Source: a virus (taxonomy: Duplodnaviria; Heunggongvirae; Uroviricota; Caudoviricetes). From it: 32,052 bases of DNA. Below, piece after piece: positions 1-32,052 of the stretch. The first letter of the stretch is position 1. Each line of letters begins with the position of its first letter. Both the position numbers and the translations under genes were made by a program. The stretch is from IMG/VR virus record IMGVR_UViG_2548876861_000008; one strand, 5' to 3'. Under the pieces are notes generated by a model. The model ran no database searches. It saw nothing but the letters and a program-made list of their open reading frames with translations, and was not told the DNA's origin.

Positions 1-1011
1 TTATAACGTCACTCCGCCTTTTAGTGGATTCAGAGCGACGGCATTTTGCAGATAGTCAGGCGCAAGGTGCGCATAGGCCATCGTCTGCTGAATGCTCGCA
101 TGTCCCAGAATCTGTTGCAGTGCGATTATATTGCCCCCATTCATCATGAAATGGCTTGCGAATGTATGCCGCAGGATGTGGGTTGCCTGATTGGGTGGTA
201 TATCAGGTTTCACTCTGCGTAAAATCCCGCAAAATTTCTCATAATCAACTTTGAATAATTTGGCGCTGGCCTCCTCTTTAACTTTTTTCTCCAGTTCCTC
301 AGAAATCGGCACGGTTCGCTTTTTACCGTTTTTGGTTTTCAGGAAGGTAACCCTGCAATTTGTAATCTGTGCTGGTTTTAGCGTGGCAACTTCCGTCCAT
401 CTTCCTCCAGTGCTCAGACATAAAAGCGCGACAAGTAAGTCATCACCAGCCAAAACATTTAACAGTTTTTCGATTTCTGCTTTTTCCAGGAACGTCATTT
501 CAGGGTTGGCCTCCGCCAGTGGCGGCAGTCCGTGAATTGGGTGTTGCCCGGAAAATTCATCCAATTGAATTAATTTTGTGAACATGCCGGATAATCGGTA
601 CATGTCACGGTTTATCGTTGCGGCACTGATACCATCACGTAGTCGCATGGAACGATAATCCATCAAAGCCCTTTTGCTCATCCTGCTCACTGGTATATCA
701 CCTATGCCGCTGATGGTTTTGAGTAGATGATTAAACTCTTTTGTTCCATGCTCGTGGTTTTGCCCGTGATATTTCCACCAGATGTCCAGCAACTCACTCA
801 AAGTCCGGCGGTCTGCTCGCTGGCCTCCCCATTCTTTCTGACTGGCATTGGCGATTGTGTATCGCTCAAATGCTAGTGCTTCAGCTTTTCTTTCGAATTT
901 CCTGCGGATGCGTTTTCCGTCGCGACCGCGAGGTCTAATGTCCACTTCATAGCGACCATCATCGAGCTTCTTAATTGCCATAAGAAAGCCCTCCGGCGCT
1001 GTATTCACCAT
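1..1011 (-). CDS. int: P2-family tyrosine integrase; window begins at its stop codon
   Basis: 336-aa ORF; C-terminal catalytic region (HILRHTFASH ... MAYAHL) typical of tyrosine recombinases; sits at prophage end next to the C repressor as in P2. Confidence 0.9.
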   Translation of the reverse strand: MVNTAPEGFLMAIKKLDDGRYEVDIRPRGRDGKRIRRKFERKAEALAFERYTIANASQKEWGGQRADRRTLSELLDIWWKYHGQNHEHGTKEFNHLLKTISGIGDIPVSRMSKRALMDYRSMRLRDGISAATINRDMYRLSGMFTKLIQLDEFSGQHPIHGLPPLAEANPEMTFLEKAEIEKLLNVLAGDDLLVALLCLSTGGRWTEVATLKPAQITNCRVTFLKTKNGKKRTVPISEELEKKVKEEASAKLFKVDYEKFCGILRRVKPDIPPNQATHILRHTFASHFMMNGGNIIALQQILGHASIQQTMAYAHLAPDYLQNAVALNPLKGGVTL

Positions 1012-5976: not shown

Positions 5977-6921
5977 ATGCCAACAGTAGTTTCACTTTTT
6001 TCTGGATGCGGTGGTTCCGATGCGGGGGTTTTGAGAGCCGGCTTTGATGTGCTTATGGCCAACGATATCTTGCCGTATGCGCGCGATGTTTATATTGCCA
6101 ATCATCCAGAAACTGATTACATATTAGGCAATATTGCTGATGTAACTACTTTTCCTAAATCTGATTTGCTGGTAGGTTGTTATCCATGTCAGGGATTCAG
6201 CCAGGGTGGTGCGCGTAAAGCCGATCGAAAAATTAATACTCTTTATTTAGAGTTTGCTAGAGCTTTAAACAATATAAAGCCTAAAGCTTTTATAGTAGAA
6301 AACGTGTCTGGTATGGTTAGAAAAAATTTTGAGCATTTGTTATCTGACCAGATCAGGGTTTTTACTGAAGCAGGTTATACTGTTTCCGCAAAAGTTTTAA
6401 ATGCGGCTGAATATGGAGTAGCGCAGGAAAGAAAAAGAATATTTATCGTAGGAATCCGTAATGATTTCAAAGTTAAGTACGAGTTCCCTCAGCCAACTCA
6501 TGGGCCAGCAACTGGCGTCAACTATGTTACTATTAAAGATGCTATAGGGCATTTACCTGAATGGCCAGAAGGTGAATTTTATGATATGGGATTCCATTGG
6601 TATTATATGTCTCGCAATCGTCGCCAGGATTGGGATCAAATTTCAAAGACAATAGTTGCTAATGCAAGGCATATGCCGTTGCATCCTGTCAGTCCTCCGA
6701 TGGAGAAAGTAAGAACTGATGAATGGAGATTTGTTGAGGATCGGAGAGCTCGCAGATTCAGTTTTCGAGAGGCAGCACTATTACAAGGGTTTGAGGATCT
6801 AGTGTTTCCAGAAACAAATGCTGCAAGTCTTGGCATGAAATACACGGTGGTTGGTAATGCAGTGCCTCCGCCGCTTTTTGAAGCTGTAACGAAGGCATTG
6901 CCAATAGAATTATGGGATTGA
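5977..6921 (+). CDS. DNA (cytosine-5)-methyltransferase (Dcm-like C5-MTase)
   Basis: 314 aa; motif I FSGCGG, motif IV PCQGFS, motif VI ENV (FIVENVSGM), QERKR, C-terminal GNAVPPP motif X. Confidence 0.85.
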   Translation: MPTVVSLFSGCGGSDAGVLRAGFDVLMANDILPYARDVYIANHPETDYILGNIADVTTFPKSDLLVGCYPCQGFSQGGARKADRKINTLYLEFARALNNIKPKAFIVENVSGMVRKNFEHLLSDQIRVFTEAGYTVSAKVLNAAEYGVAQERKRIFIVGIRNDFKVKYEFPQPTHGPATGVNYVTIKDAIGHLPEWPEGEFYDMGFHWYYMSRNRRQDWDQISKTIVANARHMPLHPVSPPMEKVRTDEWRFVEDRRARRFSFREAALLQGFEDLVFPETNAASLGMKYTVVGNAVPPPLFEAVTKALPIELWD

Positions 6922-6928
6922 TAAGCTA

Positions 6929-7924
6929 TTAAGGCTCTGGATTTAATGTATAAAGCTCTTCCTCAAATTCGCGAAACCAATCAGAGGTAGTTATCGCTTC
7001 CCATTGGTTTGCCTTATCAAGTAGATATATGATTCTCAACCTATCTAATAATAATACCCCAGCGGTTGCGTGTGTGCTTACCCATTCGCCATTTGCTTCC
7101 CGATAGAAAACAGGCGTGAACATTGTTGATGGATGCTGGAACGCAATTTGGAAATAGGTGGTCAGTTTTAACACGTTAGCCTCTAATGTTTTGCTTGGCC
7201 ACCCTGTTTCTTGTGCACCACATTGACCAAGAATTCCATAGTTGCTAGTTTGACCATCAGGAAATTCCACTGTAGCAATTAGGTCAAACCCGGCATCACC
7301 AGATGTGGGAGCTCTATTTATTTCCCTTGTGTTTAAACTACAAACTCCAAGATCTTTTCCTAAAGTTTGTAGAGCTGTCCGAAGATTTGTTCCATAATAA
7401 TTTTGCCTATCATCGGAGTTAGCATCAAAAATTCTTACGGTGCCATGTGCAGGTAAGAGAGAAATCATTGCTACTTTACATACTCTGGCAAAGCTCTTTG
7501 CCCAACGTTGTGCTGCTCCTTTAATCGACTTAAAGGATCTAAGTCTAGAGCAGCAAAGAAGAAAAACATATATTCGTTGTTGTTGGTTTAGATTTTCTTT
7601 AATAATTATCTCATCACCTGAAATTATAAATGGATATATTTTGCCAAGAGCACTTTCTCTATATTCGAGTTGTGTCCAAACATCTTCGAGTTGCTCTTCA
7701 AAACGATCATTTCTCTCAGCGTCTCCATTAATTTCTTCTTCAGAATTACATTCTTCATCAATTTCTTCAACGCTTGTTATGCCGAATTTTCTTACTGAAT
7801 CTAAATCATTTTTATGTAGTGAGTTACGTCCGGTATAATTAATTACCGTGAGTAACTCGGCTAAATCTGCAAACAAATGAGGAGAGTTGGGATGCATAAC
7901 TCCTACTTCAAAAGTCATCATCAC
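6929..7924 (-). CDS. hypothetical protein, second gene of cargo operon; function unknown
   Basis: 331-aa ORF on minus strand, 17-bp overlap with upstream gene; AT-rich codon usage unlike the phage backbone; no motif I can assign. Confidence 0.6.
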   Translation of the reverse strand: MMMTFEVGVMHPNSPHLFADLAELLTVINYTGRNSLHKNDLDSVRKFGITSVEEIDEECNSEEEINGDAERNDRFEEQLEDVWTQLEYRESALGKIYPFIISGDEIIIKENLNQQQRIYVFLLCCSRLRSFKSIKGAAQRWAKSFARVCKVAMISLLPAHGTVRIFDANSDDRQNYYGTNLRTALQTLGKDLGVCSLNTREINRAPTSGDAGFDLIATVEFPDGQTSNYGILGQCGAQETGWPSKTLEANVLKLTTYFQIAFQHPSTMFTPVFYREANGEWVSTHATAGVLLLDRLRIIYLLDKANQWEAITTSDWFREFEEELYTLNPEP

Positions 7925-9068
7925 CTCTGCTATTTTTCTCTGCTATTTCAGAACCTATAAGCTTAATATGTTTATTGATTCTTCGTGCTACTTCATGGGC
8001 CTGTCTATCATACTCTACCGTGGCAACCATGCCTGCTGCATCTATCAAAGCTGCTTCAACTTGATAAAGTAACTGGAGAAAGTCCTTAGTAATATCAGAT
8101 GTCAATTGATAGGCAACTGCGAGTGGAGCCCCCATTCGGAATTGCTCCAATGCCTTAGGGCTACTTACAACAGCAGCTAGTTCTCTTAAATTACGTGATT
8201 CTCCTACACGAGTTTTTTTATCCTCGCCTTTTTTATATAACCATTCAGTTAGTTCTTTTATTTCTTTGTTCTTTAAACTCTTAGAATTGATGATAGGATG
8301 ACTTGGTATTGTGTCTCCATCGTCTTCGATTGAAACTCCGACAAACTGGCCTAACCGCTCATCAGCAAGTGCTGTTGATAATACTGAAAATTTAATCGTT
8401 TCTTCATCTAGCTTTTCAATACCATAAAAATCATTTTTTTTAATGATTTCATACACCGCTAAAGCGTCTAGGTTACGCTTGATATGATCCCTACGACTGC
8501 CAATAGCTCTGGCAACCTCATAGTAGCGTAGCATTGGATCCAGATTTGCATTGGTATAATCAAAAAGCTGTTTAATATATCGAGCTTTTGATAAGGGTTC
8601 CCATTGTTTGACACCAGTAATATGTCTGAAACCAAGGTACGGAAGAATCTCTTCTCTTGTTTGGCGCTCAATGACAGGAACACGATCGACCGTATGTTTT
8701 GCATTTGATGCAATTTCTCGTAGTCGAGCACTTGGATTTTCACATAGTGTCGGATCGCGTAATAATTTGACCGCGGATAGGCGACGGTTTCCTTCAACTA
8801 CAATGTACTTCCCCGGCGCTCCACTATCAGGAATGACAATCAATGGTTCTCCAGGGAAAAAACCATTTTCCGCAATAGCACTCATTAGGTCTTCGATAGA
8901 TGTTGAGGTTGCTATGTAGTTAATCATTCCCAATTGGTCACGAGACACGCCTTCAGGAAGTCTTGGGTTTTCTGTGTCAAGTTCCAAATCATCTAGCGGA
9001 ACATAAAGTATTTCTGAATCAGCAATCATCTGGATCTCCGTTGAACATGTCCACGAGAAGGAGCACAA
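7908..9068 (-). CDS. ParB/Srx-fold (ParB N-terminal-like) domain protein, first gene of cargo operon
   Basis: 386-aa ORF; N-terminal region KYIVVEGNRRLSAVKLL resembles the ParB GxxRxxA box; long alpha-helical-looking C-terminal region. Confidence 0.6.
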   Translation of the reverse strand: MCSFSWTCSTEIQMIADSEILYVPLDDLELDTENPRLPEGVSRDQLGMINYIATSTSIEDLMSAIAENGFFPGEPLIVIPDSGAPGKYIVVEGNRRLSAVKLLRDPTLCENPSARLREIASNAKHTVDRVPVIERQTREEILPYLGFRHITGVKQWEPLSKARYIKQLFDYTNANLDPMLRYYEVARAIGSRRDHIKRNLDALAVYEIIKKNDFYGIEKLDEETIKFSVLSTALADERLGQFVGVSIEDDGDTIPSHPIINSKSLKNKEIKELTEWLYKKGEDKKTRVGESRNLRELAAVVSSPKALEQFRMGAPLAVAYQLTSDITKDFLQLLYQVEAALIDAAGMVATVEYDRQAHEVARRINKHIKLIGSEIAEKNSRGDDDF

Positions 9069-15972: not shown

Positions 15973-16254
15973 ATGACAGCAGAAGAAAAAAGCGTCCTGT
16001 CGCTTTTCATGATTGGGGTGCTGATTGTTGTCGGCAAGGTGCTTGCCGGTGGTGAACCCATCACCCCGCGTCTGTTTATCGGGCGCATGTTGCTCGGTGG
16101 TTTTGTCTCGATGGTTGCCGGTGTTGTTCTGGTGCAGTTTCCTGACCTGTCACTGCCTGCGGTGTGCGGTATCGGCTCCATGCTGGGTATCGCCGGTTAT
16201 CAGGTGATTGAGATTGCCATTCAGCGCCGTTTTAAGGGCAGGGGGAAACAGTAA
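15973..16254 (+). CDS. Y: holin
   Basis: 93 aa with hydrophobic transmembrane segments; precedes endolysin. Confidence 0.8.
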   Translation: MTAEEKSVLSLFMIGVLIVVGKVLAGGEPITPRLFIGRMLLGGFVSMVAGVVLVQFPDLSLPAVCGIGSMLGIAGYQVIEIAIQRRFKGRGKQ

Positions 16255-16751
16255 TGCCGGTAATTAACACGCATCAGAATATCGCGGCCTTTCTCGACAT
16301 GCTGGCAGTGTCCGAAGGGACGGCGAATCATCCGCTGACGAAAAACCGGGGCTATGACGTGATAGTCACCGGACTGGACGGGAAGCCGGAAATTTTCACC
16401 GACTACAGTGACCACCCGTTCGCGCATGGCCGACCGGCGAAGGTGTTTAACCGTCGCGGTGAAAAATCCACGGCCTCCGGTCGCTATCAGCAACTTTACC
16501 TGTTCTGGCCGCATTACCGCAAACAGCTTGCCCTGCCGGATTTCAGTCCGTTGTCGCAGGACAGACTCGCCATTCAGTTGATCCACGAACGCGGTGCACT
16601 GGATGACATCCGGGTGGGACGCATTGAGCGCGCCATTTCACGCTGTCGCAATATCTGGGCGTCCCTGCCGGGTGCCGGTTACGGTCAGCGTGAGCATTCA
16701 CTGGAAAAACTGGTCACCGTCTGGCGTACCGCCGGCGGTGTACCAGCTTAA
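16254..16751 (+). CDS. K: endolysin (lysozyme)
   Basis: 165 aa as P2 gpK; lysis cassette position. Confidence 0.85.
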   Translation: MPVINTHQNIAAFLDMLAVSEGTANHPLTKNRGYDVIVTGLDGKPEIFTDYSDHPFAHGRPAKVFNRRGEKSTASGRYQQLYLFWPHYRKQLALPDFSPLSQDRLAIQLIHERGALDDIRVGRIERAISRCRNIWASLPGAGYGQREHSLEKLVTVWRTAGGVPA

Positions 16752-30694: not shown

Positions 30695-30913
30695 ATGTTT
30701 CATTGTCCTTTATGCCAGCATGCCGCACATGCGCGTACAAGCCGCTATATCACTGACACGACAAAAGAGCGTTATCATCAGTGCCAGAACGTGAATTGCA
30801 GTGCCACGTTCATCACTTATGAGTCGGTACAGCGATACATCGTGAAGCCGGGAGAAGTCCACGCCGTAAGGCCGCACCCGTTGCCGTCAGGGCAGCAAAT
30901 TATGTGGATGTGA
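30695..30913 (+). CDS. ogr: Ogr zinc-finger late-gene transcriptional activator
   Basis: 72 aa from ATG 30695 (MFHCPLCQHAAHARTSRYI...CQNVNC); Cys4 zinc finger; matches recalled P2 Ogr. Confidence 0.85.
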   Translation: MFHCPLCQHAAHARTSRYITDTTKERYHQCQNVNCSATFITYESVQRYIVKPGEVHAVRPHPLPSGQQIMWM

Positions 30914-30923
30914 TCACAAAAAT

Positions 30924-30950
30924 AGCCCCTCAGTTGAGGGGCTTTATTTA
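30924..30950 (+). terminator. Rho-independent terminator after ogr
   Basis: Stem agcccctc / gaggggct with 4-nt loop followed by ttattta. Confidence 0.5.
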
Positions 30951-31041
30951 TGGTCGATGTGGACGCTATGTGGACAGTGGTTGATATAAATCCATTTATA
31001 TCATCAGGTTAGGTGCTTTTTTGTGACACCATCCCTGTCTT

Positions 31042-31068
31042 CCCCCACATGATGTGGGGGTTTTTTTT
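31042..31068 (+). terminator. Rho-independent terminator (probably host-derived, upstream of fieF)
   Basis: Perfect stem cccccacat / atgtggggg followed by T8. Confidence 0.5.
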
Positions 31069-31149
31069 ATCCTCAATTTGCCTGCTGCTTAATGCATTGC
31101 AGATGATTTGCTTCCGTTATACTACCGTCAGTTGATAGCGGGAGTATTT

Positions 31150-32052
31150 ATGAATCAATCTTATGGACGGCTGGTCAGTCGGGCGGCGATTGCTGCGACG
31201 GCGATGGCTTCGCTGCTATTGCTGATTAAAATTTTTGCATGGTGGTATACCGGGTCGGTGAGTATTCTCGCCGCGCTGGTGGATTCGCTGGTGGATATCG
31301 GCGCGTCGTTGACGAATTTACTGGTGGTGCGATATTCCCTGCAACCTGCCGACGATAATCACTCGTTTGGTCACGGTAAAGCTGAGTCTCTCGCGGCGCT
31401 GGCGCAAAGTATGTTTATCTCCGGTTCGGCACTATTCCTGTTTTTGACGGGTATTCAACATCTGGTATCTCCAACACCGATGACAGATCCAGGCGTCGGG
31501 GTTATCGTGACAATTGTGGCGCTAATTTGTACGATTATCCTTGTCTCGTTTCAGCGTTGGGTGGTGCGCCGGACGCAAAGCCAGGCGGTGCGGGCTGATA
31601 TGCTACATTACCAGTCTGATGTTATGATGAACGGCGCAATTCTGCTGGCGCTGGGGTTGTCCTGGTACGGCTGGCATCGCGCCGATGCTCTGTTTGCATT
31701 GGGGATCGGCATCTATATTTTATATAGCGCGTTACGCATGGGATATGAGGCGGTACAGTCATTACTGGATCGCGCATTGCCTGATGAGGAACGGCAAGAA
31801 ATTATTGATATCGTGGCTTCCTGGCCGGGTGTTAGCGGCGCTCACGATCTTCGCACGCGGCAGTCAGGGCCGACCCGCTTTATTCAGATTCATTTGGAAA
31901 TGGAAGACTCTCTGCCTTTGGTTCAGGCACATATGGTGGCGGATCAGGTAGAGCAGGCTATTTTACGGCGTTTTCCGGGATCGGATGTGATTATCCATCA
32001 GGACCCCTGTTCCGTCGTACCCAGGGAGGGTAAACGGTCTATGCTTTCATAA
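31150..32052 (+). CDS. fieF: cation-diffusion-facilitator Fe/Zn efflux transporter FieF (YiiP); host chromosomal gene
   Basis: 300-aa protein [38 protein letters not shown]..., recognised as E. coli FieF; window ends at its stop codon. Confidence 0.9.

Follow-up and report, generated by a model that had tools for sequence, protein, structure and literature searches.

The 236-bp interval between ogr and fieF (positions 30914 to 31149) in the 32,052-nucleotide stretch of DNA analyzed here, which we refer to as the window, is, with a probability of about 95%, the right attachment site (attR) of a P2-like (Peduovirus) prophage of the WΦ type that sits between cpxP and fieF of E. coli. From int to ogr, the window contained a full-length P2-like genome of approximately 31 kb, followed by 3 consecutive segments: phage-only sequence to position 31024, a core shared by phage and host to position 31071, and purely host sequence from 31072 to 31149. 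Judged by its sequence, the integration module of the prophage, consisting of int, the P arm, and the att core, is of the WΦ type. We found nothing that contradicts the identification of the interval as a WΦ-type attR.

Organization of the right junction

An earlier sequence-only reading of the window had proposed that ogr is the last phage gene, that fieF starts 236 bp further on, and that the left attachment site falls outside the window. The list of open reading frames agreed with this layout and its coordinates, and attL lies beyond the int stop codon at base 1. The same reading had placed the prophage–host junction immediately before fieF; attR is indeed located there, but the boundary is not at 30914, since phage-only DNA reaches 31024. 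The Int arm sites and the probable IHF site within the interval were absent from that reading and are included in Table 1. A 40-amino acid open reading frame at 31013 to 31135, which crosses the phage, core, and host boundaries, was rejected as spurious.

Table 1. Features at and around the right prophage junction, in window coordinates
Feature	Position	Strand	Description and basis
int	1..981	-	Tyrosine integrase with phage WΦ specificity; stop codon at window base 1
ogr	30695..30913	+	72 aa; late-gene activator, last phage gene; named ogr/OgrK in the E. coli and phage records it matches
Predicted ogr intrinsic terminator	30924..30950	+	Stem 30924-30943 and T-rich tail; scan, folding, colinear P2 feature
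Int arm-type site, P arm (predicted)	30954..30981		Repeat TGTGGACGCTATGTGGACA at 30958-30976; P2 alignment
Probable IHF site	30985..31016		Motif tATCATcaggTTA at 30999-31011, with an A/T-rich tract before it
att core (O), 47 bp	31025..31071		GACACCATCCCTGTCTTCCCCCACATGATGTGGGGGTTTTTTTTATC; four-way alignment, break points, both KC618326 ends
Predicted cpxP/CpxQ intrinsic terminator copy, inside the core	31042..31068	+	Stem 31042-31060, T8 31061-31068
Host B' arm	31072..31149	+	Native 78 bp before fieF; shared with the empty site of IAI1
fieF	31150..32052	+	Host gene for CDF metal efflux; the window closes with its stop codon

We aligned the attR of the window with the attP of phage WΦ (AY135739), the attL of the lysogen S22EC, and the attB of strain IAI1, in which the cpxP-fieF site is empty. 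The 4 sequences showed the patterns P-O-B', P-O-P', B-O-P', and B-O-B', respectively, with the 47-bp core common to all of them, which is a textbook Campbell junction. The P arm (30914 to 31024) was identical in attR and WΦ attP, and the match to WΦ ended at 31071, at the last base of the core; the B' arm was common to attR and attB. In the prophage-free strain IAI1, the genes are arranged as cpxA-cpxR / cpxP-fieF-pfkA and the core is located 23 nt past the cpxP stop codon. These alignments fix the right boundary of the prophage: the phage-specific DNA extends to 31024 and the core to 31071.

The alignment to an unoccupied cpxP-fieF region also revealed the core as a direct repeat present at both prophage ends, as the sequence-only reading had anticipated. 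The attL sequence was read from 2 close relatives, S22EC and KC618326, rather than from the genome of the window. KC618326 is a prophage deposited with its host flanks and contained the exact 47 bp at both 24 to 70 and 31076 to 31122; no longer string was common to its 2 ends. S22EC was 100% identical to the window at the junction, although its prophage is about 1.2 kb longer, and it contained the core in both attL and attR, the copy in attL having one T fewer. Specifically, the S22EC attL contained 7 T residues (L001, 1663 to 1669), compared with 8 in attR, attB, and WΦ attP, and the U tail of its reconstituted cpxP/CpxQ terminator would be one residue shorter. Because the core was otherwise invariant, the crossover point could not be located from polymorphisms; according to the alignments, strand exchange must fall within the 47-bp core, with any particular position inside it being a prediction.

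To place the junction in natural genomes, we searched 5,426 complete E. coli genomes with a 687-bp query extending from ogr to fieF and with a reciprocal query from S22EC extending from cpxP to int. The whole attR junction was identified in 690 genomes and the attL query was fully covered in 793, which means that the site is occupied in approximately 13% to 15%, or roughly one in 7, of the genomes in this set. Among the matches listed, which are a sample spread over the 5,426 genomes, those with an empty site matched the first query from window position 31025 onwards, and the match of empty sites to the attL query stopped at the equivalent of 31071. The matches to P2-like prophages located elsewhere in the chromosomes, including the ogrK remnant in K-12, ended at about window position 31004.

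The P arm, the integrase, and the proposed recombination

The direct repeat TGTGGACGCTATGTGGACA was unique in the window, with 0 occurrences expected by chance, and it fits the arm consensus tgTGGaCa described for the P2 type (PMC3448106). The region from 30954 to 30981 aligned column for column with the protein_bind feature "Int, P arm" in the P2 genome (NC_001895), and the same repeat was present as GTGTGGACACTATGTGGACAC in the P' arm, beside int, in both attL and attP, including KC618326. Further downstream, the region from 30985 to 31016 aligned with the protein_bind feature "IHF" in P2. The candidate motif tATCATcaggTTA aligned with tTTCAAtttaTTG in P2 and differed by eye at one position from WATCAANNNNTTR; from its sequence, it is a probable IHF site.

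The features annotated 3' of ogr in NC_001895 are, in order, a terminator, the Int P arm, IHF, the attP core, Cox, and the Int P' arm. P2 and the window were colinear through the first 3 of these features (window 30924 to 31016) and diverged past approximately 31004 to 31016, as expected for phages with different core specificities. From the colinear P2 annotation, both Int and IHF are predicted to bind in the P arm of the window.

The Int protein encoded in the window was identical to the WΦ integrase (AAN28248) at 322 of 326 residues (99%), and the int gene adjoins attL and cpxP in lysogens. The prophage most probably integrated into the cpxP terminator through site-specific recombination by Int. 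The phage attP contains, in order, the predicted ogr terminator, the Int arm repeats, the probable IHF site, the 47-bp core, the P' arm, and int. Going by P2 and by what is generally known about heterobivalent tyrosine integrases, Int would bridge the arm repeats and the core, and IHF would bend the P arm. Recombination inside the core, with strand exchange somewhere within the 47 bp, would split attP, leaving the P arm with one copy of the core beside fieF, as in the window, and the P' arm with the second copy beside cpxP, to the left of base 1. By analogy with P2, which has a Cox-binding region in the P' arm (NC_001895), excision would involve recombination between attR and attL via the arm and IHF sites, with Cox acting on the P' arm at attL.

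It is also conceivable, although unlikely, that the attR is real but that the prophage is fixed and non-excisable, and that the att elements are relics. In favor of this, genomes with attL outnumbered those with attR (793 vs. 690), and remnants are present at the site in other genomes: E. coli EC28 has kept only the P arm, the core, and fieF next to IS150, and mere fragments of Int were found in Kosakonia sacchari (103 aa) and Serratia sp. L9 (66 aa). However, the int gene of the window is full length and its product 99% identical to that of the viable phage WΦ, the P arm and core match WΦ attP base for base, and the P2-like genome is full length from int to ogr.

A few of the other records with the core sequence had unusual contexts. 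In E. coli EC28 (NZ_CP194969.1, 1462 to 4346), the P arm, core, and fieF were preceded by a gene for a hypothetical protein of 213 amino acids, IS150, and a truncated yihS gene, which suggests that an IS-associated deletion removed the host genes on the cpxP side together with most of the prophage. A 32,330-bp circular record deposited as "plasmid unnamed3" (NZ_JBQJRQ010000002.1) was found to be a P2-like phage genome with genes for Cox, Int, an Ogr/Delta-like protein, D, and the tail sheath. Its core was located at 16241 to 16286, between int and a gene for a hypothetical protein of 215 amino acids, and the arms were unlike those of WΦ; the record probably represents a circular phage, excised and belonging to a second lineage that uses the same attB. 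The prophage at the WΦ site in KC618326.1 contained the cdtABC genes for cytolethal distending toxin at 6058 to 8200.

The two hairpins and the host target sequence

A pattern scan identified 2 hairpins in the interval, both on the plus strand: AGCCCCTCAGTTGAGGGGCT at 30924 to 30943, followed by TTATTTAT, and CCCCCACATGATGTGGGGG at 31042 to 31060, followed by T8 at 31061 to 31068. Each consisted of 8 base pairs, 6 of which were G-C. The surrounding 2-kb region contained 6 terminator-like sites, compared with 2.3 ± 1.7 in shuffled sequences. The folding energy was estimated at −16.7 kcal/mol for the first hairpin (z = −4.0, with none of 200 shuffles as good) and −16.5 kcal/mol for the second (z = −2.65, with one of 200 shuffles as good), and the 2 strong hairpins noted in the sequence-only reading were thereby recovered as stable folds.

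Both sequences have the properties of intrinsic terminators, namely a G+C-rich hairpin, a T run, and an upstream gene on the same strand, which is ogr for the first hairpin and, in the empty site, cpxP for the second. Furthermore, the first hairpin was colinear with the P2 feature annotated as "rho-independent terminator for ogr transcript and F operon" (NC_001895). Terminator function is predicted from these properties, and the existence of a 58-nt CpxQ RNA is consistent with termination at the host original of the second hairpin. By sequence comparison, the hairpins differ in origin, the first being the terminator of ogr and the late F operon of the phage, and the second a duplicated host terminator.

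The sequence-only reading had already attributed the second hairpin tentatively to cpxP, and the identical sequence was found in the empty cpxP-fieF spacer. That reading had further considered insertion into or beside a host terminator, with the phage supplying a replacement. The insertion is into the terminator and the CpxQ sequence, not beside it; the replacement is borne out in that WΦ attP (AY135739) has its own copy and that cpxP keeps a terminator at attL.

We noted that the first hairpin also scored as a terminator on the minus strand, with an A run upstream and a T run downstream of the stem at 30924 to 30943. In the circular phage, the ogr terminator would face int transcription arriving across attP; in the prophage, the int transcripts would run out toward cpxP, antisense to CpxQ. 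Such a context-dependent 3' end would be reminiscent of lambda sib. In KC618326.1, the stem of the ogr terminator was degenerate (AGCCCCTCAGTTGAGCGACT, 30975 to 30994).

The 2 hairpins together should insulate fieF from phage transcription. No promoter for fieF was detected in the B' arm at the threshold of the scan; by eye only, a possible −10 sequence, TATACT, was seen at 31118 to 31123, and a Shine-Dalgarno sequence, GGGAG, is located at 31140 to 31144, upstream of fieF. A single base in the B' arm differed from the empty site in IAI1 (C vs. G at 31125), just downstream of the possible TATACT.

The 3' UTR of cpxP is processed by RNase E into the Hfq-dependent sRNA CpxQ, which is 58 nt long (PMC6755755) and starts with a U, with another U at position 7 (PMC10250213). 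When 58 nt were counted backwards from the last T of T8, the sequence read UUUUCCUUGCCAUA followed by GACACC..., and the exact 5' end of CpxQ was inferred from its size and the 2 U positions. With this numbering, the core from 31025 to 31068 corresponds to CpxQ nucleotides 15 to 58, or the 3' two-thirds of the RNA, plus 3 bp to 31071. At attR, nucleotides 1 to 14 are replaced by the phage sequence GGUGCUUUUUUGU, and the 5' seed that is used for nhaB and cfa (PMC6755755) is therefore removed. Because the core holds the whole cpxP terminator as well as CpxQ nucleotides 15 to 58, cpxP/CpxQ is expected to be rebuilt unchanged at attL, where the host would supply nucleotides 1 to 14 and an intact CpxQ would be restored, outside the window. 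The copy at attR consists of nucleotides 15 to 58 only and has cpxP at the far end of the prophage. To judge from this arrangement, the core copy in the window is a redundant attR copy, truncated at its 5' end and detached from cpxP.

The scan detected no promoter-like site between ogr and the core, for which reason the truncated copy is expected to be silent. In Rfam, no family named CpxQ was matched, and no family was matched on the cpxP strand. The family Hrs1 (RF02628, "Hfq-regulated sRNA 1") matched the opposite strand with 31.8 bits for the attR copy and 44.5 bits for the intact site, both below the gathering score of 56.4. The 2 matches were located at window positions 31002 to 31068 and at 2472 to 2544 of the intact site (L002), both on the minus strand. 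The Hrs1 consensus looks like the reverse complement of CpxQ, and the family may be modelled on the wrong strand.

These observations raise the question of whether lysogeny or excision errors perturb CpxQ or the Cpx response. One could speculate that WΦ-type phages, rather than simply inserting into an intergenic spacer, target the Hfq-dependent CpxQ, of which they carry a copy of the 3' 44 nt. If this were true, the targeting of CpxQ would represent integration into an sRNA gene, comparable to integration into tRNA genes, alongside the rybB and cyaR sites listed for P2-like prophages. In the strongest form of this reading, which we regard as a long shot, the phage-borne fragment, consisting of an internal region and the Hfq-binding terminator, would be expressed from attP or attR during phage development and would disturb the Cpx envelope-stress regulon. 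We place even less weight on the more specific idea that RNA is made from the truncated copy at attR or attP, for instance when transcription reads through the ogr terminator, and acts as an Hfq-binding mimic or competitor of CpxQ, with the second hairpin being a functional phage-borne sRNA module beyond its role as a recombination core. The core keeps nucleotides 15 to 58, including the terminator hairpin and the U tail; it shares its strand with ogr and follows the stem of the ogr terminator at a distance of 92 nt; and the degenerate stem in KC618326 would favor read-through. Against this, there is no promoter-like site between ogr and the core, a strong terminator precedes the core, and the copy lacks the CpxQ 5' end with the seed for nhaB and cfa (PMC6755755). 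The requirements of site-specific recombination fully account for so long an identity with a conserved host site.

No paper that links CpxQ with a P2-like phage, an attB, or a prophage was found in the searchable literature. The coincidence of the core with CpxQ is the only point here that goes beyond the textbook, and the silence of the literature is weak evidence of novelty for what is a small, annotation-level point.

To examine the breadth of the target, we searched for a 43-nt string from the core and found it without mismatches in 115 species-representative genome stretches from Enterobacterales. These belonged to the genera Escherichia, Salmonella, Citrobacter, Klebsiella, Raoultella, Enterobacter, Kluyvera, Kosakonia, Yokenella, Erwinia, Pantoea, Mixta, Serratia, and Edwardsiella. 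The large majority, 95 stretches, contained the empty cpxP-core-fieF layout; together with IAI1, this established cpxP as the upstream neighbor of fieF in prophage-free genomes, which the sequence-only reading had given as the layout in E. coli K-12. In 8 of the 115 stretches, an Int homolog with 67% to 100% identity was located directly past the core. The homolog was full length or nearly so (324 to 326 aa) in Yokenella regensburgei, Citrobacter meridianamericanus, Kluyvera sp., Erwinia sp. OLFS4, and Escherichia sp. MOD1-EC7003, and a soil metagenome-assembled genome contained a partial match of 224 amino acids. The conservation of the core offers a reason why related integrases have access to this attB in Citrobacter, Kluyvera, Yokenella, Erwinia, and others.

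In some genera, the spacer reads T8-GCC rather than T8-ATC, and the identity with the phage core would there end at the T run, which means that the last 3 bases of the core in E. coli are probably incidental. Unexpected flanks were observed in 3 of the records (L053, L054, and L071): 2 strains deposited as Enterobacter hormaechei, B17-3 and B56, had core flanks identical to those of E. coli, and the flanks of the E. coli strain ECDA1023 were Kluyvera-like. The 3 records are probably mislabelled.

We also considered the second hairpin as a terminator of the phage itself, resembling the host element by chance, with the junction directly after that hairpin or after ogr. Its position downstream of a phage gene is all that speaks for this, and the idea was rejected as having a negligible probability, since the same 47 bp follow cpxP in prophage-free E. 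coli, the 43-nt stretch is widely conserved in empty sites, and the sequence from 30914 to 31024 was absent from empty sites among the matches listed.

Comparison with known attachment sites

The WΦ-type attR described here has the standard anatomy and is already documented, both the attachment site and the phage type being known. The integration site of WΦ has been mapped to position 4104392 in MG1655, and the prophage ΦECO7 and phage L-413C share the site or core of WΦ (PMC3448106). For E. coli W, an entry "cpxP-fieF: Wphi1 (P2)" has been tabulated together with P2-like insertions at rybB and cyaR; Wphi2, the K-12 ogr-D' remnant, and P2*B are given in the cyaR row of that table (PMC3032704). 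A 31-kb prophage is located between cpxP and fieF in an O157:H7 outbreak strain (PMC7609406).

The closest known counterpart of the junction is that of WΦ itself (Peduovirus Wphi, AY135739/NC_005056), which has the same P arm, 47-bp core, and host site and a 99% identical Int, with nothing different at the junction. The prophage differs from WΦ elsewhere; across its whole length, the best match among the 5,426 complete E. coli genomes was 98.1% identical, with 95% of the query covered. P2 (NC_001895) has the same order of elements and the same kind of heterobivalent tyrosine integrase, and its sequence is colinear with the window and approximately 92% identical up to about 31004, a stretch that takes in the ogr terminator, the Int arm repeats, and most of the IHF region. 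However, the core of P2 is different and, consequently, so is its host site; the annotated core feature in P2 is 27 to 28 bp, compared with the 47-bp identity observed here.

Phages that integrate at the 3' ends of RNA genes, such as 186 (tRNA-Ile), Fels-2 and SopEΦ (ssrA), and P2-like phages at rybB and cyaR, likewise carry the conserved 3' part of the RNA, and the gene is restored at attL, as for CpxQ here (PMC3448106, PMC3032704). Unlike these sites, CpxQ is not an independent gene, as it is cut out of the cpxP mRNA's 3' UTR, and the site has been described as intergenic. P2-type integrases have been grouped as mostly integrating "between other genes" (PMC3448106).

The attR of phage lambda (P-O-B') follows the same Campbell model and is served by an arm-binding integrase, IHF, and a directionality factor for excision. 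The lambda integrase belongs to another branch and has another arm consensus, and the core identity in lambda is 15 bp, compared with 47 bp here. The directionality factor in P2-like phages is Cox rather than Xis (PMC3448106), and Cox binds the int-proximal arm in P2 (NC_001895).
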